Source: an uncultured delta proteobacterium
GTDB lineage: Bacteria; Desulfobacterota; Binatia; Binatales; Binataceae
Reading direction: 5' to 3'
Assembly: GCA_963711565.1 (NCBI GenBank)
Contig: CAVQEQ010000003.1
Span: 520,958 to 584,957, forward strand
DNA length: 64,000 bases
Part shown: positions 5,299 to 60,611 of the stretch, one piece after another
Layout: every line of letters begins with the position of its first letter
Position numbering within the stretch: the first letter of the stretch is position 1
Notes under the pieces: model-generated
The model's database searches: none
The model's input: the letters and a program-made list of their open reading frames with translations, nothing else
What the model was told of the DNA's origin: nothing
Made by a program: the position numbers and the translations under genes

Positions 5299-5418
5299 AA
5301 CACTTTCCTCCCACATCTTCATCGTGTGTTCCTCCACCGAGGCAAGGATTTATATGGATTCGGCGCGCATCACAACTGGGGGAATCGTGATTACGTTTAC
5401 TGGTCAGGAGTAACGACA

Positions 5419-6462
5419 ATGCGTTCATCTTTGAAACTGGTTTCGGATGGCGCCGCGCTCGACGGGAGCCGTCCGTTCTCTCATGATTCGTCCGACGATC
5501 GTCTGTTCGACGCCTACTCTCGCGCCGTGACGGGCGCCGCCGAGTCCGTCAGTCCGGCGGTGGTGAATATCGAGGTGGCTCATGCGACTGGACCGCGGAG
5601 CAATCCGCACAATCCCGACGCGCCGGCAGGCAGCGGTTCGGGGTTCATCGTCGCGCCCGACGGCTACATCATTACAAACAGCCACGTCGTCCATCACGCG
5701 TCGCGAATCTCGGTCACGCTTTCCGACGGCCGCAAATCGGAAGCGGAACTAATTGGAGACGATCCGGAAACCGATCTCGCGGTGATTCGAATCAGCGGAT
5801 CGAACCTGGCGGCGGTGTCTCTCGGCGACTCGCAGGCGATTCGGGTCGGGGAGCTCGCGATCGCGATTGGAAATCCGTACGGCTTCCAATGCACCGTGAC
5901 TGCGGGCGTGGTGAGCGCGCTCGGACGATCGTTGCGCGCGGGATCTGGGCGCTTGATCGACAACGTGATCCAAACAGACGCGGCACTGAATCCCGGCAAC
6001 TCGGGCGGACCGCTGGTCAACTCTCGCGGCAAGGTTATCGGCGTCAATACAGCGATCATCTTGCCGGCGCAGGGAATCTGCTTCGCGATCGCGATCAACA
6101 GCGCGAAGCTGGTCGCGGGGCATCTGATCAAGGACGGCAAGATCAGCCGCGGCTATATCGGAATCGCGGGGCACAACGTCGAGCTGCCGCGGCGCTTCGT
6201 GCGGTTCTATCGGCTGCCGGCGGAAACGGCGGTGCGAGTCGCGTCGGTCGAGGCGAACAGTCCGGCGGCGGCCGGCGGAATCAAGGAAGGCGACCTGATG
6301 ATTCGGCTCGGCGACTCGCCGATCGCAGGCATCGACGATTTGCAGCGGCACCTCACAATGAACCAGGTGGGAGTGCGCACGCCGGTCGCGGTGATTCGCG
6401 GGACCGAACAGATGACGCTCGAAGTGGTTCCGGCGGAAGCGGCGCACAAATCGCGCGAGTGA
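5419..6462 (+). CDS. HtrA/DegP-family trypsin-like serine protease with C-terminal PDZ domain
   Basis: Triad motifs TNSHVV, DLAVIRI and GNSGGPL are present. A PDZ-like C-terminus follows. AGGAG RBS lies upstream of the ATG at 5419. Confidence 0.85.
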   Translation: MRSSLKLVSDGAALDGSRPFSHDSSDDRLFDAYSRAVTGAAESVSPAVVNIEVAHATGPRSNPHNPDAPAGSGSGFIVAPDGYIITNSHVVHHASRISVTLSDGRKSEAELIGDDPETDLAVIRISGSNLAAVSLGDSQAIRVGELAIAIGNPYGFQCTVTAGVVSALGRSLRAGSGRLIDNVIQTDAALNPGNSGGPLVNSRGKVIGVNTAIILPAQGICFAIAINSAKLVAGHLIKDGKISRGYIGIAGHNVELPRRFVRFYRLPAETAVRVASVEANSPAAAGGIKEGDLMIRLGDSPIAGIDDLQRHLTMNQVGVRTPVAVIRGTEQMTLEVVPAEAAHKSRE

Positions 6463-6815
6463 GGTCTGCGGCGTTTCGCGCTTTGGCGCCGGCATCGGTG
6501 GGAATAATTTTCCTGGCGAGATGCCCAATGCTTTGCGTAACGCAGTGTGTAACTCAGCATCGCTGGGTGTCGCGTTGCTGGTCCCTGGATTGCTTGATTT
6601 GCCACGATGCCGGGCGGGACGCCAGAATGTGAGATGGTTTTAAGGCAAACTCAAGAGAGTTTGCGTGCTATGAAACTGCACATCGTCAATTATCAGCTGC
6701 AGCTCCTGCTGTTGTCCTTGAGAAATCCTGTAGAAAATTCCGACACACCGCGGCACGACGATATAGGCTCGAGCTCCCGCAGTGTTCCGGTACGGAAGCC
6801 GCGCGACTGAGACTT

Positions 6816-6895
6816 AATATAATGTGAAACCCGCGGTGGGTTTCACGCTTCCTTCGGCAGGAGTGACCCCTGCACCCGGTGTTAAAAGAAGAGCG
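6816..6895. repeat. ~75-bp intergenic structured repeat, copy 1 (double hairpin: gtgaaaccc-gcg-gtgggtttcac then gcagg..cctgc)
   Basis: About 85% identical to the copy at 13746-13825. Both lie directly after a stop codon. Confidence 0.7.
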
Positions 6896-6900
6896 ACGTG

Positions 6901-8607
6901 TTATCCCATCGGGCCCTGGTAGACCTCGGCGAAGCGCATGCCGAGTTCGCCGGGGATCGCGAGGTTGGCGTCGCGATTCGTTTTCAGGCAGATGACCGCG
7001 GGACCGTCGGCGGCCTGCGCATCCTTTAACGCCGCGTCGAGATCTTCGATCCTATCGACGTAGAACGATTTGCAGCCGAGGCCCTCGGCGACTTTGTCCC
7101 ATCGCACTGTGCCCATCTCGGTGCCGAAGGTCTTGCCCCAGAGGCGGCGTTCGTTCGGCTCTTCCATGGTCCATGAACCTTCGGCGAAGACGATGACCCT
7201 GACTTTCAGGCCTTCGCGCGCCGCCGTTTGCATCTCCATGAAGTTGAAGCCCGCGGCGCCGTCGCCGCTGACGCAAACGACTTCGCGCGAGGGGTTGCCG
7301 AGTTTCGCGCCGATCGACGAAGGGATTCCGGTGCCGAGCATCCCGAGCTCTAGGATGTTCAGGAACGACCGCGGCTTGGTCGATGGAAGAAACCAGAGCG
7401 ACCACAACGAGGTGTTGCCGCCGTCGGCGACGTAGATACTGTCGGGGCCGAACACCTTGCCGATTTTTTCGATCGCTTGCGCCGGATGGATTCCCGGTCC
7501 GCTCCACTTCGCGACCGAGGCGAAACGCTTCTCGCGCCATTCGTGAGCGGTCTGCCGATAGCGCGCCATATCTTCGCCGTTTTTGGGCTGGGCGCGTTTC
7601 GTCTTGAGCACACGCAGCAAGCCTTCGAGCGCGCTCTTCGCGTCGGCGACAATCGCGAGTGCGAGCGGGCGCGTGACGCCCATGTTGCGCTGATCAATGT
7701 CCACCTGGATGAGTTTCTGATTGGAGGGGTCGCCCCAGTACTTGTCGTAGGGAATGTCGAGGTTGCCCATCCGCGAGCCGGCGACGAGGATCACGTCGGA
7801 CTCGCGGCGCGCGAGGTCGGCGGCAATTCCGTAGCCGTAGAGAAAGTTCGGATGGTCCATCGGCACCGACGAGCGCGCGGCAATCGAACTGATGACCGGA
7901 CAGTTGAGCAGATCGACGACGGCTAGGAGCGCCTCGTTGGCGCCGGCGCGATCGACTCCGCCGCCCGAGATCACGAGAGGCCGCTTCGCCGCTATGAGCA
8001 TCGCGGCGGCCTCTTCGAGCTGCGCCTCCGACGCGCGCGGACCCGATGCGCGGTATTCATTCGGCTTGAGCACGCGGACTTTGGTGTCGTCGCCCGTCGC
8101 GTACATGATGGGCGCGGGAATCTCGATATGAATCGGGCCGGGCCTGCCGGTCCACATCTCGCGAAACGCAATGCGCATCACTTCGGGGATTCGATCCCAC
8201 GACAGAATCGGACCGCTCCATTTCACGACGGGCTTGAAGATTTCGAGCTGGTCCTGTCCCTGGAAGGTCGAGGGCGGCGACGGATAAACGATGCCGAGGC
8301 GATGCTGCGCGGTGATGACGACGACGGGCACGCCCTCGTGGCGCGCGGTGATCACGCCGGGCAGAAGATTCGCGGAGCCGGGGCCTGGATTGCCGAGCAC
8401 GGCGGCGACCTGGCCGGTCGTCTTGTACAGCCCCTCCGCCATGTGGACGGCGGCGGCCTCGTGACGGATGGGCACGAGTCGCACGTCGTACTCCGCGAGC
8501 TTGGCGAGCAGCGGATCGACCTCGGGACAAGGGAGGCCGAAGACGAACTTGACACCCTCGGCAACGAGACATCGCAGCAGCAGTTCGGCACCTGTGATTT
8601 CGCTCAT
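6901..8607 (-). CDS. Thiamine-pyrophosphate-dependent enzyme (acetolactate synthase large-subunit-like)
   Basis: N-terminal TPP Pyr domain (MSEITGAELLLRCLVAEGVKFVFGLP). Central and C-terminal TPP-binding domains follow (GDGAAGFNFMEMQTA). Start is the ATG at 8607 with a GGAGGA RBS. The longer ORF to 8754 lacks an RBS. Confidence 0.75.
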   Translation of the reverse strand: MSEITGAELLLRCLVAEGVKFVFGLPCPEVDPLLAKLAEYDVRLVPIRHEAAAVHMAEGLYKTTGQVAAVLGNPGPGSANLLPGVITARHEGVPVVVITAQHRLGIVYPSPPSTFQGQDQLEIFKPVVKWSGPILSWDRIPEVMRIAFREMWTGRPGPIHIEIPAPIMYATGDDTKVRVLKPNEYRASGPRASEAQLEEAAAMLIAAKRPLVISGGGVDRAGANEALLAVVDLLNCPVISSIAARSSVPMDHPNFLYGYGIAADLARRESDVILVAGSRMGNLDIPYDKYWGDPSNQKLIQVDIDQRNMGVTRPLALAIVADAKSALEGLLRVLKTKRAQPKNGEDMARYRQTAHEWREKRFASVAKWSGPGIHPAQAIEKIGKVFGPDSIYVADGGNTSLWSLWFLPSTKPRSFLNILELGMLGTGIPSSIGAKLGNPSREVVCVSGDGAAGFNFMEMQTAAREGLKVRVIVFAEGSWTMEEPNERRLWGKTFGTEMGTVRWDKVAEGLGCKSFYVDRIEDLDAALKDAQAADGPAVICLKTNRDANLAIPGELGMRFAEVYQGPMG

Positions 8608-8714
8608 AACGTCCTCCGGTGAGACCAATTCGGACACTACGCTCGCTGCCAAACCGGGAGCAAGCCGCGCGTCGCTGATGGAATCGACGTTCCTCCACCT
8701 GCTAGTTTGCGTGC

Positions 8715-10235
8715 ATGTCAACCGAGCCACCAGTCGCTGGAGCCGAAGGAGCATTGAATCGAGGCGCGCGCGAAGCCCTGATTTACGCGGTGCTACTCAG
8801 CGCTGCAGTTTTTCTCTATTTGATCATCCGCAAGTATGGCGACCAGCTAGCGCAACCCACTCGAGCCGCCGCGCAACTTGGCGTCGCCGCGGCCGGCCCT
8901 CCGGGCGGCCATGACGCCGACGTGATGGTTCATATTTTGCTGGCGCTGTCGGTGGTGATCGCGTGCGCGCGCCTGGGCGGAATGCTTTTTCGATTCCTGC
9001 ATCAGCCCGCGGTGGTGGGCGAGATCGTCGCGGGCATCATGCTCGGTCCGTCGCTGCTGGGACACGTCTGGCCAGGGGCGTTCGCGTATCTGCTGCCGCC
9101 GACGGTGGCGCCATTTCTGGACGTACTCGCGCAGCTCGGCATTATCCTCTACATGTTTTTGGTCGGTCTCGAACTCGACCCTGTGCAGGTGGCGCGGCAC
9201 GGGCGAGCCGCGGTTGCGATCTCGCACGCCAGTATCGTCACGCCGTTCTTGCTCGGCACCCTGCTAGCGTTGCTGCTCTATCCGGAGGTTGCCGCGGCCG
9301 GAATTCCGTTTACGGGTTTTTCGCTCTTCATCGGCGTCTCGATGTCGGTGACGGCGTTCCCCGTGCTGTCGCGGATTCTGACCGACCTCGGCATCAACAA
9401 GACGCCGCTGGGGGTAACGGCCCTGACGAGCGCCGCGGTAGATGACGTGACCGCATGGTGCCTGCTGGCGGTGGTGGTTGGCGTGGTCGGGGCGCATGGG
9501 TCCGAGAGCGTGATCACCGTGGCGATGGCGGTCGCTTACATCGTGCTGATGACTGTGCTCGTCCGGCCAACGGTCGGGCGGCTGACGATCCGGCAGGAAA
9601 CCAGCGGGCACCTGACGCAGGGGATGATGGCGATTGTTTTTGTCCTGTTGCTGCTGTCGGCGCTGACCACGGATCTTATCGGCATTCACGCGATGTTCGG
9701 CGCGTTCGCGCTCGGCGCGATCATTCCGTCGGACAGCAAGCTCGCGCACGACATGACGGATCGGCTCGAAGACGTGCTGGTGGTGCTGCTGCTGCCGACG
9801 TTTTTCGCTTTGACCGGGCTTCGCACTGAAATTGGCCTCGTGAGCGGGTTGCACGAATGGATGCTGTGCGGGCTGATCATCGCGGTTGCGTCGATCGGCA
9901 AGTTCGGCGGCAGTTTCGTAGCCGCGCGGCTGACGGGATCGAGCTGGCGCGATGCGTCTGCGATAGGCGTGCTGATGAACACGCGCGGACTGGCGGAATT
10001 GATCGTGCTCAACATCGGCCTGCAGTTGCGAGTCATCAACCCCAGAGTGTTCGCGATGCTGGTGGTTATGTCGCTGGTCACTACGCTCGCGACCAGTCCC
10101 ATACTTCGCCTGATCAGGGGCAAGGAGGTCGCTGCCGCGCCGTCCGAAGGCGGGGTCTCGTGGATGGGGCGGTTGCGGATGGCGCTGCACAAACCAGTGG
10201 AGATAAGCCGGCGCTCGCTTCACGAAAATACATAA
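8715..10235 (+). CDS. Monovalent cation:proton antiporter, CPA2 (Kef/NapA-type Na+/H+ exchanger family)
   Basis: 506-aa polytopic membrane protein with ~12 TM helices. Sodium/hydrogen-exchanger signatures are present (GEIVAGIMLGPSLLG, ALGAIIPSD). Confidence 0.7.
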   Translation: MSTEPPVAGAEGALNRGAREALIYAVLLSAAVFLYLIIRKYGDQLAQPTRAAAQLGVAAAGPPGGHDADVMVHILLALSVVIACARLGGMLFRFLHQPAVVGEIVAGIMLGPSLLGHVWPGAFAYLLPPTVAPFLDVLAQLGIILYMFLVGLELDPVQVARHGRAAVAISHASIVTPFLLGTLLALLLYPEVAAAGIPFTGFSLFIGVSMSVTAFPVLSRILTDLGINKTPLGVTALTSAAVDDVTAWCLLAVVVGVVGAHGSESVITVAMAVAYIVLMTVLVRPTVGRLTIRQETSGHLTQGMMAIVFVLLLLSALTTDLIGIHAMFGAFALGAIIPSDSKLAHDMTDRLEDVLVVLLLPTFFALTGLRTEIGLVSGLHEWMLCGLIIAVASIGKFGGSFVAARLTGSSWRDASAIGVLMNTRGLAELIVLNIGLQLRVINPRVFAMLVVMSLVTTLATSPILRLIRGKEVAAAPSEGGVSWMGRLRMALHKPVEISRRSLHENT

Positions 10236-12071: not shown

Positions 12072-12565
12072 TGGCCACGACACCACAACCGATACCCGAT
12101 TCTGCGAACGATCCCGCTACCCGATTCGCCGAACCGCACGTGCGTGAGTTCGTAACCGCCGCGCGCCTGGCGCATCTGGCGACCGCCGACGACAGCGGCG
12201 CTCCACACAACGTACCGCTCTGCTACTGGTTCGACGGCGAACGCATCTACTTCGCGATCGACGAGAAGCCCAAGCGCCACACGGGCCTGGCGCTCAAGCG
12301 GATGCGCAATATCGCGCAGAATCCGCGCGTCGCCGTCGTGATCGATCATTATGAAGAAGACTGGTCGCAGCTCGCGTACGTGCTGATTCGCGGTAACGCC
12401 CAAGTGGTCGACGACCCCGAAGAGTACCTGGTCGCCATGCGGCATCTGCGCGACAAATACGTGCAGTATCGCGCGATGAGCCTGACGCCGGAGAAAAATC
12501 CAATCGTGAAGATCGATCCGGAGAGCGTGCACGTGTGGGGCGCACGTTTCATGGCGGATTCATGA
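12068..12565 (+). CDS. Pyridoxamine 5'-phosphate oxidase (PPOX) family protein, probable F420/FMN-binding split-barrel
   Basis: 165 aa with segments ARLAHLATADDSGAPHNVPLCYWFDGERIYFAI and RVAVVIDHYEED, typical of PPOX-class (often F420-dependent) enzymes. ATGA overlap with the upstream gene. Confidence 0.55.
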   Translation: MMATTPQPIPDSANDPATRFAEPHVREFVTAARLAHLATADDSGAPHNVPLCYWFDGERIYFAIDEKPKRHTGLALKRMRNIAQNPRVAVVIDHYEEDWSQLAYVLIRGNAQVVDDPEEYLVAMRHLRDKYVQYRAMSLTPEKNPIVKIDPESVHVWGARFMADS

Positions 12566-13749
12566 CGGCGCAGTTCGATGAAATTGCGCACGCGCTTGGC
12601 GATACGCGACTTGACGGATGGCTGTTCTATGACTTCCGGCTGAGCGACCCGCTCGCTTATCGAATTCTCGGATTGTCGGAAGATGGTATCGCGACGCGGC
12701 GATGGTTCTGCTTCGTGCCGGCGCACGGCAGGCCGCGGGCGATAGTTTCGGCAGTCGAGGCGCATCGGCTCGACGCGCTCGGCGTTGAGAAGATCGTCTA
12801 TCGCTCGCACGACGAGATGATCGCGGCCTTGCGCACCGTGCTCGGCGGCGCGCGGCGAATCGCGATGGACTACTCGCCTGGATGCGCGATTCCGTACGTC
12901 TCGCGCGTCGATGCGGGCACGGTCGAAATCGTGCGCGCGATGAACATCGAGGTCGTCACGGCGGCCGATCTGATCCAGCGATTCGAGGCGACATTGACGC
13001 GCGAGCAGCTCGGGAGCCATCAGCGTGCCGCGCGGGCGCTTCGAGCGATCGTCGATGAGACCTTCAGGGAGATTGCGCAGTTGATTTCGGCAGATCGTGC
13101 GGTCAGCGAAGTCTCGGTGCAAGAATCGGTGATGGCGCGGTTCGCCGCGCGAGGTCTCGTGACGCACGCGCCGCCGATCGTCGCCGTCAATGAACATAGC
13201 GCCGATCCGCACTACGGCCCGACGCCGAAGCACGACCGCGCGATCCGGCGCACAGATTTTATCCTGCTCGACCTGTGGGCGAAGGAGTCGGCGCCCGACA
13301 GTATTTACGCCGACTTCACCTGGGTTGCGTTCGCAGGAGACAGGGTTCCAGAAGAGCACGCGCGTATTTTCAACATTGTCGCGGATGCGCGCGACGCAAC
13401 GGTAGATTTGGTGCAGCGTCGGGTCGCTGCGGGCGAGCCGGTTAGTGGCCGTGAAGCTGATCGCGCAGCGCGTTCGGTAATCGAGGCGGCCGGCTTCGGT
13501 GAGAAGTTTGTACATCGCACGGGCCATTCGATCGGCCGCGAAGTGCATGGCACCGGCGCGAATCTCGACTCGCTCGAGACGCTGGACGATCGCACGCTTA
13601 TCGACCACACATGCTTTTCGGTCGAGCCGGGAATTTATCTGCCGGGAAAATTCGGCGTGCGCAGCGAACTCGATATGACGATCGAAGACGGGCGTGCGCT
13701 GGTCAGCGGTGAGCCGCGCCAGCGCGAGATCGTCGCGATCCTCGCTTAA
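12562..13749 (+). CDS. M24-family metallopeptidase (Xaa-Pro aminopeptidase/creatinase fold)
   Basis: Metal-ligand motifs HRTGHSIGREVHG and FSVEPGIY in a C-terminal pita-bread domain. ATG at 12562 overlaps the upstream stop (ATGA). Confidence 0.75.
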   Translation: MTAQFDEIAHALGDTRLDGWLFYDFRLSDPLAYRILGLSEDGIATRRWFCFVPAHGRPRAIVSAVEAHRLDALGVEKIVYRSHDEMIAALRTVLGGARRIAMDYSPGCAIPYVSRVDAGTVEIVRAMNIEVVTAADLIQRFEATLTREQLGSHQRAARALRAIVDETFREIAQLISADRAVSEVSVQESVMARFAARGLVTHAPPIVAVNEHSADPHYGPTPKHDRAIRRTDFILLDLWAKESAPDSIYADFTWVAFAGDRVPEEHARIFNIVADARDATVDLVQRRVAAGEPVSGREADRAARSVIEAAGFGEKFVHRTGHSIGREVHGTGANLDSLETLDDRTLIDHTCFSVEPGIYLPGKFGVRSELDMTIEDGRALVSGEPRQREIVAILA

Positions 13750-13825
13750 TTAAATGTGAACCCCCCGGTGGGTTTCACGCTTCCTTCGGCAGGGCTGAGC
13801 CCTGCAGCCAGTGTTAAGCGGCTTC
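13746..13825. repeat. ~75-bp intergenic structured repeat, copy 2
   Basis: ttaattaaatgtgaaccccccggtgggtttcacgcttccttcggcagggctgagccctgcagccagtgttaa aligns to 6816-6895 with partly compensatory changes in hairpin 2 (gcagggc/gccctgc). Confidence 0.7.
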
Positions 13826-13841
13826 CAAAGCAGAGCGGGGC

Positions 13842-22160: not shown

Positions 22161-23426
22161 ATGAATCGTCGATATATTGTCGCGCTTTCGTTTCTTCTTG
22201 CCTTCGGACTCATCGCGTGCGCGGGCGGCGGTGTGACCGAAACGCCGCCGGTCTTCGTCACGAGTCCGCAAGGGAACCGCGTCGAGGCGCTCGCGATGAC
22301 CACGCCGCGGGCGAACGCCGCCGCGATTCGGCTGCGCGATGGACGCGTGCTGATTTGCGGCGGCACCGCAACCGGACAAATCGGCGGCGTGCTGTCGAGC
22401 GCCGAGCTGTACGACCCGGTCGCGCGCACCTTCACTCCCACCGGTTCGATGACGGTGCCGCGCACCGGACAGACGATCACGCTGCTGCAGGACGGGCGCG
22501 TGCTGCTCACGGGCGGAGACAAGAACGCCGGCTATCGATCGCAACTCGCCAGTGCGGAGATTTACGATCCATCGACAGGCACCTTCAGCGCGACCGGCTC
22601 GATGTCAACGCCGCGCGAAGGGCATACCGCAACCTTACTTCGCGACGGGCAGGTGCTGGTCGCGGGCGGCAGCCCCAACGGCATCCAGACGACGGGTAGC
22701 GCCGAGATTTACGATCCAGCGAGCGGGACGTTTCTCCGCACGGGCCATCTGCATCAGCCGCGCGTCGCGCATGTCGCCGCGCTGCTCGGCACGGGCCAGG
22801 TCTTGATCGCCGGCGGCGGCCGTGGCGGCATGCCGGGCGGATACATCTCGTACGACACGGCGGAAACGTATGACCCGGCGACGGGCAGGTTTACGACGGT
22901 GTTCGCGCACATGAAGAGCGATCGCGTCGGCGCGGCCGCGGTCAGACTCAACGATGGGCGCGTGCTGATCGTCGGCGGCAAGAGCGGCAAAGTCATCGTC
23001 GGCATGCGCACTCTCGCGTCGATGGCGCCGCTTAACACCGCGGAGATTTACGATCCTGAATTGGGCACCTTCATCAGGACCGGCGACATGAGCGCGCCGC
23101 ATTACCTGGCGACCGCGACGACGCTCGACAACGGCAATGTACTCGTCGTTGGCGGATGGACAATCAGGGGGCCGATCGTGGTCGGGATGCGCGACGCTGA
23201 AGTCTTCATGCCGGAAACGAACGTGTTCTCGCACGTGGGACAAACCAACGTCGCGCGCCTTACGAACACGGCGACCCTGCTGAACGACGGCGAGGTATTG
23301 ATCGCCGGCGGCCTAGCAGACAAGGCGTTGGTGACGGCGTCGGTGGAATTCTATTCGCCGAGGCAGCATCGGTTCCTGATGATTCCCGAGTCGAGCGGCG
23401 GTGCATCGTCTACGCTGGCACAATAA
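22161..23426 (+). CDS. Kelch-repeat beta-propeller lipoprotein
   Basis: Lipobox LIAC in the signal peptide. Seven or more Kelch-like repeats (RxxxxxxLLxDGRVLxxGG ... AEIYDP). Confidence 0.7.
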   Translation: MNRRYIVALSFLLAFGLIACAGGGVTETPPVFVTSPQGNRVEALAMTTPRANAAAIRLRDGRVLICGGTATGQIGGVLSSAELYDPVARTFTPTGSMTVPRTGQTITLLQDGRVLLTGGDKNAGYRSQLASAEIYDPSTGTFSATGSMSTPREGHTATLLRDGQVLVAGGSPNGIQTTGSAEIYDPASGTFLRTGHLHQPRVAHVAALLGTGQVLIAGGGRGGMPGGYISYDTAETYDPATGRFTTVFAHMKSDRVGAAAVRLNDGRVLIVGGKSGKVIVGMRTLASMAPLNTAEIYDPELGTFIRTGDMSAPHYLATATTLDNGNVLVVGGWTIRGPIVVGMRDAEVFMPETNVFSHVGQTNVARLTNTATLLNDGEVLIAGGLADKALVTASVEFYSPRQHRFLMIPESSGGASSTLAQ

Positions 23427-47421: not shown

Positions 47422-47482
47422 GATAATTGAGCTTCTCTCACTGTCGTCGTCGAACGGCAACACCCGCGGGTTTCACATTCGA

Positions 47483-49408
47483 TCAAGTTCCGCCGCTGCT
47501 AAGTTCCGCCGGAGTGCGCAGCAACCCATACGCGGTCACCGCGAAGAAGACGGCGAGGTTGATCGATGCCGCCCCGATCAGCGCGGCGTTCAGATGGTCG
47601 GGGAAATATGACGAGGTGTCGGTGAGATGCTTGATGTAGACGAGGTTGAACAGGAACGTCGCGCTGACCACGCCGAAAATCGAGGTGAGAAATTCGCTCT
47701 CCAGCGCGATCGGAATCAGGAAGACCAGCGGGTAGTAGAGATATCGCTCGTGCATCCGCGGCGCGAACATGAAGAAGCCGAACAGCGCGACGAAAATTGC
47801 GAGCAGCGCCGCACGAGCCGACCGCGCGCGCCAAATCATGTACGACGCGATCAGGTAAACGGCGCACGTCAGCGAAAGTCCGAACGCGCTGTACGAAACG
47901 CCGCCGAAGACTTTGTCGGTGTCGGGCGTGCCCATCCCGCCGATCAACCCCATGAAGTTGAACGCGCCGACCGACGCTTCGCTGAAGCGCGTCCCGAGGT
48001 CTTTGTATACGTTGATTATCCAGTCCCACGAATGCCCGAGTTGATACGGCAGGATTCCTATCGCAACCGTGCCCGCGACCGCACTAGCGCACCACACGCA
48101 TTCGACGATGCCCGCGTTGAAAAGCGTCCACAGCGCTAGCGGCGGCGTAAATGCGAGCGCTTGCGGCTTAGCCAGCATCGCGATCGCGGCCGCACTCCAG
48201 CCGAGGCGGTAGCGGCCGGTGAGGATCAGAATCGCTGCCGCGATCATCGGCAGCGCGACGACCGAATCGCTCTGGCCCCATACCACAGTGTCGAAGATGA
48301 GCGCCGGGTTGAGCGCGAACAGCATCATTATAATGAGGGCGCGCGGGCCGCGTCCGTCGCGCCACGTCGCGAAGTAAAGCGTTAGGCCGATGAAGAGATC
48401 GGCAATCAGCGGCGGCGTCTCGACGATCACGCGAAAGCCGTTCGCGGTCGGCTCGAGCAACCTGCCTATCCATCCCGAGAGCCACAGCAGGTACAGCGAC
48501 CCAGGCGGATAGGCGTCAACCGGCAGGCCGGGATCGTAAATCTTCGACGGCCCCAGCGCGGCGGCCAGGAGAGCGCGATTGGTCTTCGCCCAGATGTCCC
48601 AATAGAAGCCGGTAAAATGAAACAGTGCGGCGAACTTGATGGCCGTAATCGCCAGCATGAGGCCTGCCGCGAGCATCCACGCTCCCTGACCTGCCCAAAG
48701 AGCGGGCCGCGCTATCTCAAACAGCGCCCATCCCAGGATCGCGAGCAGGACAATCCCGCAGACGATGCCCGTCGCGCGGATCGAGATTGTAGCGTCGGGC
48801 TGATGCAGCTGATCCTTGTAGAGTGTGCGGATTGCAGCGAGATTAAATCTGACTACGCCCATCGGCGGCGGAGTCGAAACCTCGATCACCTTGATATTGC
48901 GAAATGAGGCGCGCCCCGTATCCGGATTTCCCGCAACGCCCAACTGGCAGAGCAATTCAGTCGTGTCGCCCCATCGATCTTCGATCAAGAAAAATGAAAC
49001 GGTTTGCCAGTCCTTGGTGCCTTGCAGATGATTCGAGATGAGCTGGATGCCGTCGAAGGTGCTGATCGCGATGTTCGCGCCGCCTTCATGCGGCATCGCA
49101 CCCTCGACGCGCGCTTCGGCGCTCACCTTGTAAATCCCCGGCCGCAGCATCAGTGCCTGATGCCAGCTCGAAAACGTCCGGCTGTTGTTCGCGATGCCAA
49201 GCACGCCGCCAGCGGCCGGCGTATAGGTCCATGAAAACTTTGTCAGCTTCTTGTCGGAAGACAACGCGTACCAATCGGCCGGCGCGCCGTCGAAGCCGGA
49301 CGCGAGGTCCGGGTTCTTGACGAGATTGGTCTGGGCGAAGGCGCAGAGCGGCCCCCAGAGCCATGATGCGCACAGTACCAGCGCCACAACCGCGATGAAT
49401 CGACGCAT
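47483..49408 (-). CDS. GT-C-fold integral membrane glycosyltransferase-like protein (DUF2029/PMT-like) with N-terminal periplasmic beta-rich domain
   Basis: Signal peptide followed by a ~200-aa soluble domain. Then 10 or more TM helices with conserved acidic-residue loops typical of lipid-linked sugar transferases. Confidence 0.5.
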   Translation of the reverse strand: MRRFIAVVALVLCASWLWGPLCAFAQTNLVKNPDLASGFDGAPADWYALSSDKKLTKFSWTYTPAAGGVLGIANNSRTFSSWHQALMLRPGIYKVSAEARVEGAMPHEGGANIAISTFDGIQLISNHLQGTKDWQTVSFFLIEDRWGDTTELLCQLGVAGNPDTGRASFRNIKVIEVSTPPPMGVVRFNLAAIRTLYKDQLHQPDATISIRATGIVCGIVLLAILGWALFEIARPALWAGQGAWMLAAGLMLAITAIKFAALFHFTGFYWDIWAKTNRALLAAALGPSKIYDPGLPVDAYPPGSLYLLWLSGWIGRLLEPTANGFRVIVETPPLIADLFIGLTLYFATWRDGRGPRALIIMMLFALNPALIFDTVVWGQSDSVVALPMIAAAILILTGRYRLGWSAAAIAMLAKPQALAFTPPLALWTLFNAGIVECVWCASAVAGTVAIGILPYQLGHSWDWIINVYKDLGTRFSEASVGAFNFMGLIGGMGTPDTDKVFGGVSYSAFGLSLTCAVYLIASYMIWRARSARAALLAIFVALFGFFMFAPRMHERYLYYPLVFLIPIALESEFLTSIFGVVSATFLFNLVYIKHLTDTSSYFPDHLNAALIGAASINLAVFFAVTAYGLLRTPAELSSGGT

Positions 49409-55274: not shown

Positions 55275-56786
55275 CTACAGCTTCACATATGCCGACTTGA
55301 TTTGAGTGAACAGGTCGATCGCGTATTTGCCGTTCTCGCGGCCGAAACCCGATTGCTTGTATCCGCCGAACGGCATCGAAGTGTCCGCGAGTCCGTAGCA
55401 ATTGACCCACACCGTGCCGGCCTTGAGCGCCCGCGCAACCTTGATTGCGCGGCTGATGTCTTTGGTCCACACGGCGGCGGCGAGACCGTAGGTGGTATCG
55501 TTGCCCTGGAGGACCGCGTCGGTCTCGTCCTTGAAAGGAATCGCGGCGGCCACGGGACCGAAGATCTCCTCGCGGGCGATCCGCATGCTGTTGTTCACGT
55601 CCGCGAACAGCGTCGGTTTGACGAAGTAGCCCTTGCCCTCGATAGCTTCGCCGCCGATCGTCGCGCGCGCGCCCTCCTTGCGTCCGAGTGCGAGGTAACC
55701 TTTCACGCGGTCGAACTGCTCCTTGGAAACCAGGGGGCCCAGTCTCGTCTTCGGATCGAGTCCGTCGCCTACCGTCATCCGTTCGGCGGCCTTGCCGAAT
55801 TGATCGAGAAAGTTGTCGTACATTTCCTGCTGCACGAAAATCCTGGTGCCGGCGACGCAGACCTGTCCCGAATTGAAGAAGACCCCGCTCATCGCATTGG
55901 GAATTGCCTGGCTGAGATCGGCGTCGGGGAAAATGATATTGGGCGACTTGCCGCCCAGCTCGAGCGAGACCCGCTTCAGATTGCTGGTCGAGGCAGCCAG
56001 GATCATTTTGCCGACCTCGGTCGATCCTGTGAAGCTGACCTTGTCGATATCCGGATGCTCGGAAATCGCGCTGCCCGCGCCGGGACCGAAGCCCGTCACG
56101 ATATTGACGACGCCGTCAGGGATTCCGGCTTCCTGAATCAGCTCGCCGAGCCGAAGCGCGGTCAGAGGAGTCTGCTCGGCCGGTTTCAGGATCACTGTGT
56201 TGCCGCAGGCGAGCGCGGGGGCGATTTTCTGCGCGGCCATCATCAAGGGGAAATTCCACGGCGTTATCAGACCGCAGACGCCGACCGGCTCGCGCAGCGT
56301 GAAGTTGAACGTTGAAGGATCGGAAGGATTTGTGTCGCCGTAAATCTTGGTCAACCATCCCGCGAAATACCGGAAGATTCCGGCCGAGCCGTTAATGTCG
56401 ATAGCCCGCGCCTGCGACAGGGGCTTGCCGTTGTCGAGCGTCTCGAGTTCCGCGAGTTCGTCCCCGTTTTGTTCGATCAGCTCCGCTATCTTGAGCAAGT
56501 AGCGGGTGCGCTGATGCGGCGTGATGGACGACCACTTGCCCTCCTCAAATGCTTTTCGCGCCGCCTTGACGGCCTCGTCAACGTCGGCCTTGTCGCCTTC
56601 CGCAATCAGCGCAAGGACTTGCTCATTCGCGGGATTGATCGTCTCGAAGGTCTTGCCCGATTTCGAGGGGACCCATTTCCCGCCTATCAGCAGTTTTTTC
56701 GGAGAACTGCTCAGAAATCCGATTGCGGCGCTGGACTTGGCTCCACGCGCTGCGCTTTCGACCGATGGTGTCGTTGCTGCACTCAT
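55275..56786 (-). CDS. NAD(P)-dependent aldehyde dehydrogenase
   Basis: ELGGKSP Glu motif and catalytic Cys in FFNSGQVCVAGTR. Confidence 0.85.
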   Translation of the reverse strand: MSAATTPSVESAARGAKSSAAIGFLSSSPKKLLIGGKWVPSKSGKTFETINPANEQVLALIAEGDKADVDEAVKAARKAFEEGKWSSITPHQRTRYLLKIAELIEQNGDELAELETLDNGKPLSQARAIDINGSAGIFRYFAGWLTKIYGDTNPSDPSTFNFTLREPVGVCGLITPWNFPLMMAAQKIAPALACGNTVILKPAEQTPLTALRLGELIQEAGIPDGVVNIVTGFGPGAGSAISEHPDIDKVSFTGSTEVGKMILAASTSNLKRVSLELGGKSPNIIFPDADLSQAIPNAMSGVFFNSGQVCVAGTRIFVQQEMYDNFLDQFGKAAERMTVGDGLDPKTRLGPLVSKEQFDRVKGYLALGRKEGARATIGGEAIEGKGYFVKPTLFADVNNSMRIAREEIFGPVAAAIPFKDETDAVLQGNDTTYGLAAAVWTKDISRAIKVARALKAGTVWVNCYGLADTSMPFGGYKQSGFGRENGKYAIDLFTQIKSAYVKL

Positions 56787-56812
56787 ATCTTTACCTCCAT
56801 AAATCTCTCGAA

Positions 56813-57679
56813 TCAGAATGGAATGCGCGCGGTCAGAACTACGTTGTGGTTATAGGTGCGATGCATCGTCACCGCGACCTGCTCGCCGGCGCCGAACGTC
56901 AACCCGACCCGGTCATGAATCGGGATGCGCCCGATCACCATCCCCGGCGTCAGATAGAGCGTGCTGTGACCGGTGTCGGCGCCGTACGATTGCCAGGTGT
57001 AGTTGGTCTCGAACTCCGGCCAGAAATATTTGAAGAGCCGATACTGAAACGTAGTATTCCACGCCAGCGGCATCCCGAGCCGGTCCAGGCCGCCGCTCGG
57101 AAACGCGACTCCCACGGTGGACTGCACATCAAAATCGCCGAAACCCTTGCCGGCCGCGAGCGTCGGCGTGAAGATCCCGTGGCCGTTGCCGTTGACGTTC
57201 GATCCGGTCGGCACGCTGAATCCCATGAAGGCGGTCACGATGTAGTTGCCGTTCTCTTCGTTAGCAGAGAGCAGCCGGTATTTGATCAGAAACGGCCAGT
57301 CGGCGAAGCCGTCGGTGTTGCGCGGGATGTTGCGCTTCAGGAACCCCGGTATCCCGACTATGACTTCCGTATTTTGAAACGGGATAAGCTCGATTCCCTT
57401 GCCGGCGCCGAAGTTGTCGGTCGCGACCCCGTCGCGCATCGACTCGAAGAACTGGTCGTAGCGCACTTCTTCTTCGAGCCGCGGCGTGACCGTCACCAGC
57501 GGAGTAATCCAGTGCGGTTGCTCGCTCTGGATTTGAGTGACACGCGGGAACCAGTTTGTGAAGTAGTCCTCGATTGCGGTCCCGAAGTCCGAGACGCTCT
57601 GTGCGCGGCACGGCGCCGCGGCGAAAAGAATAACCACAGTCATACTCAACCCAATGGCTCGTAGATGTCTCGTCACCAT
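56813..57679 (-). CDS. Outer-membrane beta-barrel channel (MetA-pathway/phenol-degradation-type transporter family)
   Basis: Signal peptide. Alternating amphipathic beta-strands. Aromatic C-terminal residue F. Confidence 0.5.
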   Translation of the reverse strand: MVTRHLRAIGLSMTVVILFAAAPCRAQSVSDFGTAIEDYFTNWFPRVTQIQSEQPHWITPLVTVTPRLEEEVRYDQFFESMRDGVATDNFGAGKGIELIPFQNTEVIVGIPGFLKRNIPRNTDGFADWPFLIKYRLLSANEENGNYIVTAFMGFSVPTGSNVNGNGHGIFTPTLAAGKGFGDFDVQSTVGVAFPSGGLDRLGMPLAWNTTFQYRLFKYFWPEFETNYTWQSYGADTGHSTLYLTPGMVIGRIPIHDRVGLTFGAGEQVAVTMHRTYNHNVVLTARIPF

Positions 57680-57737
57680 TCGTCCTCCAGAAAAAGCGTG
57701 CGTTGCTTTCCGACGATCCCGCCACGCCTGTCCGCCG

Positions 57738-59243
57738 TTAGAGCTTCACGTACACGGACTTGATTTGCGTATAGAGATCGAGTGAATGAACCCCCAATTC
57801 GCGGCCGAACCCTGATTGCTTGTATCCGCCGAACGGCGAGATCGGATCAGAGCCGCCGTAGGTATTGATCCAGACCGTACCCGCCTTCAATGCGCGCGCG
57901 ACCTTAAGCGCGCGACTGACGTCGCGGGTCCATACGGCAGCCGCGAGACCGTAGGTGGTATCGTTGCCCTGCAGGATCGCATCGTTCTCGTCTTTGAACG
58001 CGATAGCGGCGCCGACCGGGCCGAAGATCTCCTCCCGGGCTATGCGCATCTGATTGTGAACTCCGGCGAAGATCGTCGGCCTCACGAAATAGCCGGCGCC
58101 GGGGACTGCTTCGCCGCCGGTGGCTACCTTCGCGCCTTCACCTTTCCCAATTTCCAGATAGCTCTTGACCCGATCGAACTGTTCCCTCGAGACGACCGGG
58201 CCGAGCCGGGTCTTCTCGTCAAGCGGATCGCCCACGGTCATCTTTTCGCTCTGCTCGATCAGCCGTTCGACGAATTCGTCATAGACCGGTTGCTCGATAA
58301 AGATTCGCGTCCCCGCTGTGCAGACCTGGCCGGAGTTGAAGAACACGCCCCGGGTCGCGGACTGAACGGCGGCCTCGAGATCGGAATCGCGAAAAATAAT
58401 GTTCGGCGACTTGCCGCCAAGCTCGAGCGACACGCGCTTGAGATTTCCCGCCGACGCCTGAAGAATCAGCTTGCCCACTTCGGTCGAGCCCGTGAATGCG
58501 ACCTTGTCTACGTCGGGATGTTCCGCGATTGAGCTGCCGGCGCCCGGTCCAAAGCCGGTTATGATGTTAACGACGCCGTCAGGGACGCCCGCTTCCTGGA
58601 TCAACTCGCCGAGCCGGATTGCGCTGAGCGGCGTCTGCTCCGCGGGCTTAAGCACGATCGTATTGCCACAGGCCAACGCCGGCGCGACCTTCCATGAGGC
58701 CATCGAGAGCGGAAAGTTCCAGGGAATTATTTGTCCGCAAACCCCAACCGGTTCGCGGATCGTGTAGTTGAACGTCGATGGGTCGGACGGGTTCGTCTCC
58801 CCATAGATTTTCGTAGGCCATCCCGCGTAGTAGCGAAAAGTTCTGGCGGCGCCGGGAATATCAGCCAGCTTGGCGATCGCCAGCGGTTTGCCATTGTCGA
58901 GCGATTCAAGTTCGGCGAGCTGGTCGGCGTTCTGCTCGATGAGGTCGGCGATTTTGTACAAGTAGCGCGAACGCTGATGGGGCGTGATCGAAGACCACTT
59001 GCTCTCGTCGAAGGCCCTGCGCGCAGATGTTACCGCCGCGTCAACGTCCGCCTTGTCGCCTTCCGCAATCAGGGCCAAGATCTCTTCGTTGGCGGGATTG
59101 ATTGACTCGAAAGTCTTGCCCGATTTGGCCGCGACCCACTGGCCGTTAATCAGCAGCTTCTTGGGCGAGTCCCTGAGAAAATTAATCGTCGCCCGCGTTT
59201 TTATTCCCGCTACGGCTCTTTCAAGCGATGGAACCGCTGCCAT
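57738..59243 (-). CDS. NAD(P)-dependent aldehyde dehydrogenase (paralog of 55275-56786)
   Basis: Same ELGGKSP and GQVCTAGTR motifs. ~75% identity to the other ALDH by eye. Confidence 0.85.
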   Translation of the reverse strand: MAAVPSLERAVAGIKTRATINFLRDSPKKLLINGQWVAAKSGKTFESINPANEEILALIAEGDKADVDAAVTSARRAFDESKWSSITPHQRSRYLYKIADLIEQNADQLAELESLDNGKPLAIAKLADIPGAARTFRYYAGWPTKIYGETNPSDPSTFNYTIREPVGVCGQIIPWNFPLSMASWKVAPALACGNTIVLKPAEQTPLSAIRLGELIQEAGVPDGVVNIITGFGPGAGSSIAEHPDVDKVAFTGSTEVGKLILQASAGNLKRVSLELGGKSPNIIFRDSDLEAAVQSATRGVFFNSGQVCTAGTRIFIEQPVYDEFVERLIEQSEKMTVGDPLDEKTRLGPVVSREQFDRVKSYLEIGKGEGAKVATGGEAVPGAGYFVRPTIFAGVHNQMRIAREEIFGPVGAAIAFKDENDAILQGNDTTYGLAAAVWTRDVSRALKVARALKAGTVWINTYGGSDPISPFGGYKQSGFGRELGVHSLDLYTQIKSVYVKL

Positions 59244-59406: not shown

Positions 59407-60525
59407 ATGGCATTGATTGGCAACGCCATTGAGCGCGCGCGAACCGAGCGGAACCTCACGCAGACCGAGCTCGCCCGCCGCGCGGGAATCTCGCGGCAGG
59501 CGCTGGGCGCGATCGAATCGGGCGCTTACCATCCGGGCGTGGCTATCGCGATCCGCCTCGCGCACGAACTCGACGCCACCGTGGAAGCTCTATTCGGCGA
59601 ACCCGACGCCGAGACCTCAACTCTCGTCGAGGCGCGATGGTTCGACGACGCTCGACGCCCTGCCCCCGCCCAGACTCGCGTTGCGCTCGCGCGTGTCGGC
59701 GGGAAAGTCGTGGCCGTCGCACAACCTGTCGCCCATCTCACGCTGGCGACCGCGGCCGGCGTAGTGCAACGCGCCCGGCGGCATCGCGTCAACGTCTGCA
59801 CCTTTCGACTGCCCAACGAAATCGACTCGACGCTGTTGATGTCGGGATGCGACCCTGCCGTTACGATCCTCGTTGACTGGCTCGCGCGACGCCGCTCCCA
59901 CGTTCACGCGGTCGCGATTCCGTGCTCGAGCCGGGCAGCGCTGCGGGCCGTCGTCGATGGCCGCGCGCACGTCGCCGGCGTGCATCTTCGTGATCAGAGG
60001 AGCGGCGAGTACAACCTCGCGCCAATCCGCCGCACCCTGGGTGACCGGCACTCCGTGGTCGTGAACTTTGCGCGGTGGGAATTGGGCCTTGCGACGGCGC
60101 CCGGCAATCCGCTGGCAATCGATGGGTTCGCCGACCTGCAGAGACCGGGCTTAAGAATTGTGAACCGAGAAGACGGATCCGGGGCACGCTCGGCGCTCGA
60201 CCAGGCGCTGCGCGAACTCGGTATTAAGCCGGAGCGCGTCGCCGGGCATCACTTCGAAGTCGGCGGTCATCTCGAAGTTGCGGCCGCGATCGCGACCGGG
60301 CAGGCTGACGCCGGAGTCACTATCCGGCTCGGTGCCGACGCCTACGGATTGCATTTTATTCCGCATCGCGACGAGCGCTACGACCTCGTGTTCATGGAGC
60401 ACGAGGCCGAGTCGATGCCGATCAAGGCGATGCTCGACGCTCTGAACTCGCGGCGCTTTGCACGCGAGATCAGCCAGCTATGCGGCTACGACACCGCGCA
60501 GATGGGACAAGTTATCCACTCTTGA
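59407..60525 (+). CDS. XRE-type HTH plus periplasmic-binding-protein-like (PBP-like) domain regulator
   Basis: MALIGNAIERARTERNLTQTELARRAGISRQALGAIE is an XRE HTH. The C-terminal ~250 aa is substrate-binding-domain-like. It is divergent from the ALDH gene. Confidence 0.6.
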   Translation: MALIGNAIERARTERNLTQTELARRAGISRQALGAIESGAYHPGVAIAIRLAHELDATVEALFGEPDAETSTLVEARWFDDARRPAPAQTRVALARVGGKVVAVAQPVAHLTLATAAGVVQRARRHRVNVCTFRLPNEIDSTLLMSGCDPAVTILVDWLARRRSHVHAVAIPCSSRAALRAVVDGRAHVAGVHLRDQRSGEYNLAPIRRTLGDRHSVVVNFARWELGLATAPGNPLAIDGFADLQRPGLRIVNREDGSGARSALDQALRELGIKPERVAGHHFEVGGHLEVAAAIATGQADAGVTIRLGADAYGLHFIPHRDERYDLVFMEHEAESMPIKAMLDALNSRRFAREISQLCGYDTAQMGQVIHS

Positions 60526-60575
60526 TCCGTTCTGTTCCCCTCGCCTGAAAAGAGATCCCTTCTGTTCCCCTCTCC

Positions 60576-60611
60576 TGAAGGGAGAGGGGTTAGGGGAGAG
60601 GTTCCAGCGTA
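60576..60611. repeat. 35-bp GC-rich hairpin element (inverted copy of 15235-15270), preceded by a tandem ttctgttcccctc-cctgaa direct repeat at 60541-60590
   Basis: cccctctcctgaagggagaggggttaggggagagg is the reverse complement of 15235-15270 apart from 2 nt. It lies just after the stop of the upstream gene. Confidence 0.65.

Follow-up and report, generated by a model that had tools for sequence, protein, structure and literature searches.

BOX in pneumococci, ERIC/IRU in enterobacteria and the Correia elements of Neisseria are structured, transcribed intergenic repeats, which are modular and are reported to affect the stability of neighbouring mRNAs. Repetitive extragenic palindromes (REPs) and bacterial interspersed mosaic elements (BIMEs) have been proposed to stabilise mRNA 3' ends and to act in translation (PMC3733652, PMC2817692, PMC12306157), and REPs lying 15 nt or less from a stop codon are reported to stall ribosomes (PMC12306157, via its reference 17). 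REPs are defined by a terminal GTAG or CGTC beside the stem in >90% of members and by a single stem-loop of 20-40 bp (PMC3733652). Here we describe a family of repeats of about 77 nt, represented by two copies, A and B, in a 64-kb stretch of DNA (the window) from an uncultured bacterium of the Binataceae, a family of soil bacteria. The repeat family is REP/BIME-like, yet it fails the REP-defining features that were tested here.

To our knowledge, no member of the Binatota has been cultured, and next to nothing has been described of their non-coding RNA biology. We read the element as a new mosaic repeat of the REP/BIME type that acts as a structured RNA where the 3' untranslated region (UTR) of the upstream gene begins, a reading that we hold with evenly balanced confidence. 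The alternatives are taken up below where the evidence on them is presented.

The window copies and the Binataceae family

The core unit of copy A lies at 6813..6885 on the + strand and consists of the lead-in CTTAATATAAT, hairpin 1, a linker, hairpin 2 and the tail ACCCGGTGTTAA. The core unit of copy B lies at 13745..13817, also on the + strand, and its ortholog is L080:6003-6077. Both are about 73 nt long. Their ungapped identity is 88% (blastn: 89% over 65 nt), which confirms the preliminary description of this DNA, where two copies of about 85% identity in the same orientation had been reported. A 27-nt core, GGTGGGTTTCACGCTTCCTTCGGCAGG, is identical in the two copies, with 0 matches expected from shuffles. 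The family covariance model scored copy A at 97.5 bits (E = 3e-36, span 6800-6900) and copy B at 88.9 bits (span 13732-13832). It also gave 12 bits (E = 0.08) to a truncated third copy at 47464..47495 on the - strand, in which the first 28-32 nt of the unit, GGAACTTGATCGAATGTGAAACCCGCGG, run into unrelated sequence. This remnant stands directly after the stop codon (47483-47485) of a 641-codon open reading frame (ORF) at 47483-49408 (-), for which there was no Pfam match. By this model, the window contains two full copies and one remnant.

A species-representative genome collection was scanned with the exact 20-mer TTCACGCTTCCTTCGGCAGG from the core, which covers the linker. It matched at least 115 genome stretches, which come from 30 Binatus/Binataceae assemblies, and one further match, in a Bdellovibrionia metagenome-assembled genome (MAG), was taken as chance. 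The assemblies carry the labels Candidatus Binatus, Binataceae, 'uncultured delta proteobacterium' (MFD soil MAGs), 'Deltaproteobacteria' (from palsa) and, for one MAG, 'Candidatus Acidiferrales'; Binatus is classified in Binataceae, Binatales, Binatia, Candidatus Binatota. Chunks of ~8 kb around the matches, 0.9 Mb in total, were fetched and are cited here by L numbers. A profile hidden Markov model (nhmmer) and a covariance model, R1, recovered ~50 more full copies without the exact 20-mer from the same chunks. The usable full copies numbered ~174 in the 0.9 Mb, nearly all of them outside called genes. From the two full copies per 64 kb of the window and the ~0.5 extra copies per 8-kb chunk, we infer ~100 or more copies per genome, a number that is extrapolated and not counted.

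The preliminary description had allowed that the genome might hold these two copies alone, with no covariation; the element is a multi-copy repeat with covariation in its stems. Rfam had been named there as a check. No Rfam family matched: Rfam 15 gave nothing at gathering thresholds across the 64 kb and, with E raised to as much as 10 for the loci of the two copies, either no match or one meaningless match. A viral contig collection contained no copy of the element. Among the papers searched, none was found with the core 15-mer or with an account of such a Binatota repeat; those listed on Binatota and repeats were microbiome and genome-assembly studies, as judged by title and abstract.

Ten element loci (L020, L038, L052, L059, L069, L070, L083, L088, L102 and L106) belong to the MAG 'Candidatus Acidiferrales bacterium SMAG_U11458' (DATNLS01). 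The flanks of L106 are 85-93% identical to the Binatus loci L007 and L084. Probably the label of this MAG is wrong or the bin is chimeric.

The two hairpins and the candidate pseudoknots

Conservation over 127 anchored copies goes up ~30 nt before the anchor and down ~27 nt after it, which sets the core at ~77 nt. It drops at about the boundaries that had been given for a ~75-bp element. In the consensus, the stop codon is followed by GGGGAAGGGtAAATCAC or GAGGAAC, then by TTtATTgAAT and GTGAAACCC-GCGGT-GGGTTTCAC; the 3' part is GCTTCCTTCG, GCAGGGG-TGA-CCCCTGC and ACCCaGTgnTAAGAAA. From 5' to 3', the unit has an AU-rich lead-in, a first hairpin of 9 bp, a pyrimidine-rich linker that reads CUUCC (in one subfamily CCUCC), a second hairpin of 7 bp and a tail with CACCC; a purine-rich tract, starting at the stop codon of a co-oriented gene, usually comes before it. 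Of 171 copies, 116 have AATG immediately before the hairpin-1 stem, 21 have TATG and 11 have GTAG.

In copy A, hairpin 1 occupies 6824..6846, where GTGAAACCC (6824-6832) pairs with GGGTTTCAC (6838-6846) in 9 bp around the loop GCGGT. The pyrimidine-rich linker GCTTCCTTCG, with its CUUCC resembling an anti-Shine-Dalgarno (anti-SD) sequence, follows at 6847..6856. Hairpin 2 at 6857..6873 (GCAGGAG / TGA / CCCCTGC) has six of seven pairs, with an A.C mismatch of 6862 with 6868. In copy B, hairpin 1 is at 13756..13778 (GTGAACCCC / CCGGT / GGGTTTCAC), the same linker GCTTCCTTCG at 13779..13788, and hairpin 2 at 13789..13805, with 7 bp (GCAGGGC / TGA / GCCCTGC). The 9-bp stem that had been described for hairpin 1 in both copies is perfect in copy A; in copy B it holds for eight of nine pairs, with C13761 opposite T13773 (C.U in RNA). 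The compensatory change noticed in hairpin 2 was borne out, as the innermost pair changes from G:C in copy A to C:G in copy B, and across the family it is GC 77 times, CG 9 times and UA 4 times. The + strand folds of the two copies as single sequences (z -1.4 and -0.7) were not significantly better than those of shuffles; the support for structure comes from the family and not from these two copies.

This family-level support was measured in a covariation alignment, A4, of 96 model-derived sequences enriched for divergent copies. The 16 stem pairs are paired in 98.9% of cells, and 5 pairs and 32 cells are changed on both sides. Covarying pairs include 26:49 (UA/CG) and 28:47 (AU/GC) in hairpin 1 and 69:106 (GC/CG/UA) in hairpin 2. 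None of 500 shuffles matched the stem values, sliding one partner left 26-55% paired, and RNAalifold found the two hairpins independently. The two-helix fold is conserved and is backed by compensatory change. The suggestion that structure is conserved beyond chance, first made from copies A and B, holds across the family, in which both hairpins are kept through such changes.

Pairing may also extend beyond the stems. Near the top of a mutual-information scan of all column pairs stood loop-1 column 39 with linker column 60 (GC 55, CG 21) and loop-2 column 72 with tail column 117 (GC 72, AU 12); next to the latter, 71:118 is UA in 58 and UG in 23. The mini-helices that these pairs would form, 38-40/59-61 and 71-73/116-118, are 92% paired, versus 40-55% when slid, and have 36 doubly changed cells where 11.7 were expected. 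A third haplotype class (5 copies), with the loop NNCGC and the linker CCGCG, keeps the complementarity by another route. Wobbles are frequent, with G40.U59 in 78 of the 96 sequences and U71.G118 in 23. Both G40.U59 and the alternation of A and G at 118 opposite U71 are tolerated only with a + strand fold, because they would be A.C mismatches on the opposite strand. It is likely, though not proven, that the element forms two small pseudoknots and so a compact, doubly pseudoknotted fold. In copy A, the proposed first pseudoknot would join T6854, C6855 and G6856, at the linker's 3' end, with G6836, G6835 and C6834 of loop 1, and the second would join T6864 and G6865 of loop 2 with G6878 and C6877 of the tail. 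In the family, three bases of loop 1 and two or three of loop 2 appear to take part.

A further step would be to regard the core as a new class of autonomous structured RNA, present ~100 or more times per genome at the starts of 3' UTRs, doubly pseudoknotted and acting through a specific partner. We consider this unlikely. Under such a scheme the pyrimidine strand could lie along hairpin 1, with U or C at column 54 tracking A-U or G-C at 28:47 as isosteric U.A-U / C.G-C triples. The partner might be a blocked exoribonuclease, or a 30S subunit or rRNA-tail-binding protein, with mimicry via the anti-SD-like strand.

Two other origins of the conserved sequence were considered. A small protein-coding gene (VKPAVGFTLPSAGVTPAP, with ATG and TGA as start and stop) was rejected, as linker lengths shift the frame and the ATG/GTG start is not conserved. 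Read in such an ORF, the compensatory changes are non-synonymous, e.g. VT -> LS -> LN, which counts against a peptide gene. A search for a tRNA or tmRNA origin found none.

Position relative to genes

Genes in the loci were called with a codon-usage log-odds model trained on the loci's long ORFs, and these calls agree with the window's Pfam-supported genes. A gene of the same orientation precedes 75 of ~130 exact-match copies, and in 63 of these its stop codon falls between 10 nt inside the element and 26 nt ahead of the element's 5' end. The mirror case, an opposite-strand gene ending 30 nt or less from the element's 3' end, was found in 6 of 57. Of all 172 copies in which hairpin 1 was located, 88 have a called stop codon of the same orientation at 4-46 nt before that hairpin. 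The element is therefore placed after stop codons in a polar manner. The preliminary description had each window copy begin within a few nucleotides of a stop codon. For copy B this is correct, as it overlaps the TAA of a peptidase gene, and the association is family-wide; the stop codon ahead of copy A does not belong to a supported gene.

The purine tract is usually abutted directly by the stop codon (TGAggggaaggg, TAGgagaaggg and TGAggagagaggaac are examples), and in some copies the stop is part of the lead-in ACTTAAT/ACTTGAT, as is the case for copy B and its ortholog L080. Convergent gene pairs often have one copy behind each gene. There was no bias in stop-codon identity (p = 0.24). Pfam assigned 120 families to 87 upstream proteins, none of them in more than three proteins. 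The upstream genes have no function in common, and the element belongs to gene ends in general, not to a regulon.

The closeness of tract and stop codon could also mean that the element is a translation-linked device. In this case, the SD-like purine tract and the anti-SD-like linker (CUUCC or CACCUCCUU) would be a switch that is sensed by the terminating ribosome or captures 30S subunits, and that tunes termination, recycling, re-initiation or translation-dependent decay. Purines make up 65% of the tract, compared to 50% after other stops, the tract's complementarity to the linker is higher (median -9.3 versus -6.2 kcal/mol, p = 1e-24), and the consensus minimum-free-energy fold pairs the two. 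A ribosome terminating at the stop codon would have the tract within its footprint and hold it unpaired, which suggests a translation-sensitive alternative fold. One subfamily's linker has CACCUCCUU, identical over 9 nt to the canonical 16S 3' tail (examples are L043:1835-1935 and L030:97-197), and ribosome stalling is reported at REPs 15 nt or less from a stop (PMC12306157, via its reference 17). However, covariation between tract and linker is absent, as copies of the CCUCC subfamily retain GGAAGG tracts; a tract-linker helix is for this reason kept here as a possibility within this alternative. In addition, the distance from stop to hairpin varies from 4 to 46 nt, copy B is without a tract, and some copies have no upstream co-oriented gene. 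Mimicry of the 16S rRNA 3' end was rejected, because beyond the 9-nt identity in one subfamily the wider alignment, over hairpin 1 and linker, is marginal (p from 0.001 to 0.3). Overall, a translation device seems quite unlikely.

Modules, subfamilies and turnover

In other genomes, accessory hairpin modules lie 3' of the core after a variable purine-rich spacer: 2a (gatgcgggacttcgtccctgttagaac), 2b (aatcgcaaaatggcgaggacgccattttgctctcagg) and 2c. Of the module copies, 44 of 55 for 2a, 27 of 37 for 2b and 5 of 10 for 2c come directly after the 3' end of a core and share its strand. Examples are L003, L012 and L054, among others, for 2a and L014, L024, L026 and L051, among others, for 2b. None was found in the 64-kb window, and 2a is present at L080 and absent at its ortholog, copy B. 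A core with alternative 3' modules makes these repeats BIME-like mosaics. Module 2b has an AGGA loop and a short GC stem between AAAA and TTTT flanks, and looks like a weak bidirectional terminator as well as like a GGA-loop protein-binding hairpin.

These modules bear on the possibility, already raised in the preliminary description, that the repeats are a terminator family, intrinsic or factor-dependent, that marks gene ends. Copies do lie at gene ends, modules 2b and 2c are short GC stems between A and T runs, and the minus strand of copy A, where hairpin 1 is followed by an AU-rich run, was flagged as terminator-like. On the sense strand, the sequences after hairpin 1 and hairpin 2 are GCUUCCUU and ACCCAGUG, neither of them a U-tract, and terminator scans of the + strand gave no site at copy A, copy B or L014; an intrinsic terminator was rejected on these grounds. 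Copies also stand between co-directional genes at operon spacing, as in the 92 nt around copy B, and the conserved linker and loop pairings would be superfluous for a terminator. We regard this explanation as very improbable.

At orthologous sites across species, the element is mostly kept while the flanks are 77-94% identical. Two comparisons, L043 versus L086 and L064 versus L012, showed a filled site against a different or empty one, with neither target duplication nor clean edges. In L012, a CCTTCCC/GGGAAGG hairpin replaces the element at an orthologous site. Subfamilies recur at non-orthologous loci in several species, among them GTGGAACCC/GGGTTCCAC with the linker ACCTCC and the GCGGAACCC variant. 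A ~25-nt insertion in hairpin 2, CCTCCTTCGGCTTCGCTCAGGACAGGCT, is likewise common to non-orthologous loci of several genomes (L009:1790-1915, L074:174-299, L085:5632-5757, L086:5660-5785 and L040:561-684). Conversely, orthologous sites can carry differing subfamilies with the full set of coordinated changes (L078:7269-7369 versus L043:1835-1935; L055:6066-6165 versus L085:5632-5757). The recurrence of subfamilies and their exchange at orthologous sites point to replicative spread or gene conversion with the fold preserved.

Alternatively, the family could be a mobile repeat of the REP/REPIN, palindrome-associated transposable element (PATE) or miniature inverted-repeat transposable element (MITE) type that is purely selfish and works at the level of DNA. 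The hairpins would then serve transposase recognition on single-stranded DNA, with no RNA function, and the nearness to stop codons would reflect target preference or tolerated insertion. The occupation of more than 100 unrelated loci fits this, as do the shared blocks of change in subfamilies, the 25-nt insertion at non-orthologous loci, truncated remnants such as that at 47464-47495 in the window, the presence/absence differences between orthologous sites (L043/L086 and L064/L012), and the balance of G.U and A.C in the main stems. A MITE, one of the candidates in the preliminary description, was rejected, since conservation profiles showed no inverted termini longer than ~6 nt and neither polymorphic site had a clean target-site duplication. 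A canonical REP fits no better, since just 11 of 171 copies have GTAG and most copies are singletons (7 pairs within 300 nt among 174). No transposase was seen in the few genes flanked by copies that were checked, which were NmrA-like and ParA-like instead. Moreover, a polarity to translation of 63 versus 6 is hard to get from insertion at the DNA level alone, and the conservation of loops, single-stranded linker and loop-to-linker complementarity across ~30 species counts against this alternative. The loop pairings that depend on G.U are also less well explained. We therefore think a purely selfish repeat possible, though rather doubtful.

Proposed mechanism and points against it

On the preferred reading, that of a mosaic repeat acting as a structured RNA, the 3' UTR of the upstream gene's transcript would begin with the unit. 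The unit's stable, compact fold would protect or delimit the 3' end of this message, most simply as a block to 3'-to-5' decay or as a fixed processing site, as reported for REPs (PMC12306157; PMC3733652). Because the purine tract is within the ribosome footprint of the stop codon, the terminating ribosome may influence this fold. The family would have spread by copy-and-insert or by gene conversion.

Several points weigh against this reading. The pseudoknot pairs came from a post hoc scan. In the same data, columns 54 and 47 (both U to C) are as strongly correlated without being Watson-Crick; this could be a change from a U.A-U to a C.G-C base triple or mere lineage linkage, and it indicates that lineage linkage can mimic the signal. 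The covariation is largely at the level of subfamilies, and few independent founding events may underlie it. For these three reasons, the pseudoknots are graded as no more than likely. Inside the main stems, G.U (15) is about as frequent as A.C (12) and, thus, there is no strand signal there. The sample was seeded by an exact 20-mer spanning the linker, and the gene-call model is crude. About a quarter to a third of the copies have no called co-oriented gene before them, and several lie 50-90 nt from a divergent gene's start codon or antisense just upstream of a gene. Lastly, function at the RNA level is something that we infer.

Genes beside the window copies and other features of the window

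Copy B lies between a Peptidase_M24 family gene (Pfam; 12535..13749, +), whose TAA at 13747-13749 falls within the copy's lead-in, and a HAD hydrolase gene from 13842. The two genes are co-directional, and the gap of 92 nt between them is operon-like. Copy A is among the rarer antisense arrangements, in which an opposite-strand gene ends near the element's 3' side. Here this is a gene for a thiamine pyrophosphate (TPP)-dependent enzyme (6901..8754, -), convergent with copy A, whose stop codon (6901-6903) begins 5 nt past 6895, the end that had been given for copy A before. The neighbour on the other side is an HtrA-like protease gene (5326..6462). The TGA at 6808-6810 (+) ahead of copy A closes a 67-codon ORF only, which the gene calls did not select and for which there was no Pfam match. 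The ~350 nt between the HtrA-like gene and copy A (6463-6812) contain this ORF and no supported gene, and showed no similarity to the fetched Binatus loci.

The genes between copies A and B include those for the TPP-dependent enzyme, a Na+/H+ exchanger and the M24 peptidase. An island flanked by the copies as attL and attR was ruled out, since the family is dispersed and the intervening genes are ordinary.

Other repeats were seen in the window. Two tandem 30-nt units, GATCCGTTCTGTTCCCCTCGCCTGAAAAGA, follow a stop codon at 60524-60600, and the second enters a CCCCTCTCC/GGAGAGGGG hairpin that has no U-tract; a similar TTCTGTTCCCC...hairpin stands after the core element in L110. Eight tandem coding repeats of 123-135 nt lie at 1285-2245 in the minus-strand ORF 2-2503, which encodes a repeat-domain protein. 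A tandem duplication at 55336-59177, with a period of 2.46 kb and ~75% identity, is consistent with paralogous genes. Five repeats, ~150-180 nt apart, lie at 22398-23071 in the ORF 22161-23426, where their 35-nt core would encode an AEIYDP-like motif.

Significance

The element may mark about one gene end in 10-20, a rough extrapolation from the two to three copies among the window genes and from ~13% of gene ends in loci that were chosen for carrying a copy. With a covariance model of the family, hundreds of sites in each genome could be annotated, and it would serve as a lineage marker. Calls of gene ends would improve as well, because several stop codons lie inside the element. It has already flagged one MAG as probably mislabelled or mis-binned (the 'Acidiferrales' MAG, with ten copies and Binatus-like flanks). 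If the fold and the polarity to stop codons are functional, the family would offer a natural system in which to study the protection or processing of mRNA 3' ends by bacteria without canonical terminators. If the core were in addition an autonomous RNA, this would amount to genome-wide, translation-coupled control of mRNA 3' ends in Binataceae.

Comparison with known systems

The element resembles integron attC sites in lying directly 3' of an ORF in the ORF's orientation, in being structured and in size (57-141 nt for attC). The ends of copy B, GCTTAAT...GTTAAGC, also resemble inverse-core and core sites. Instead of standing in cassette arrays, the copies are scattered among housekeeping genes and can point either way within a few kb, and each forms two hairpins rather than one long imperfect palindrome. 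An attC site was rejected because of this arrangement and because the consensus ends ACTTtATT ... TAAGAAA do not fit RYYYAAC/GTTRRRY.

BOX, ERIC/IRU and Correia elements are similar to the Binataceae element in their size of 100-150 nt, their stable RNA folds and their modularity. Correia and ERIC elements differ in having terminal inverted repeats, and Correia elements also TA duplications, none of which was seen here. BOX, ERIC and Correia elements are not known to be bound to a stop codon in one orientation.

The likeness to REPs and BIMEs is the broadest. Like them, the Binataceae repeats are high-copy, extragenic and hairpin-forming, have alternative complementary stem residues among subfamilies, often lie near or over stop codons, and are joined with short modules into mosaics. 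The differences are in the unit and in its arrangement. The unit is ~77 nt long, with two unrelated hairpins, a conserved 10-nt linker and apparent loop-to-strand pairings; the GTAG tag is as rare as described above, and CGTC is beside neither stem. The copies are mostly singletons, not head-to-head or tail-to-tail dimers (REPINs) or clusters. Among the seven neighbouring pairs, six are convergent, with each copy behind its own gene where examined. Finally, the copies show strong polarity to the upstream gene, and their sequence is nearly identical across ~30 species. The family is, in sum, a previously undescribed, high-copy, structured intergenic repeat of the Binataceae (candidate phylum Binatota), set apart from REPs and BIMEs as a lineage-specific, stop-codon-polar mosaic with apparent pseudoknots.

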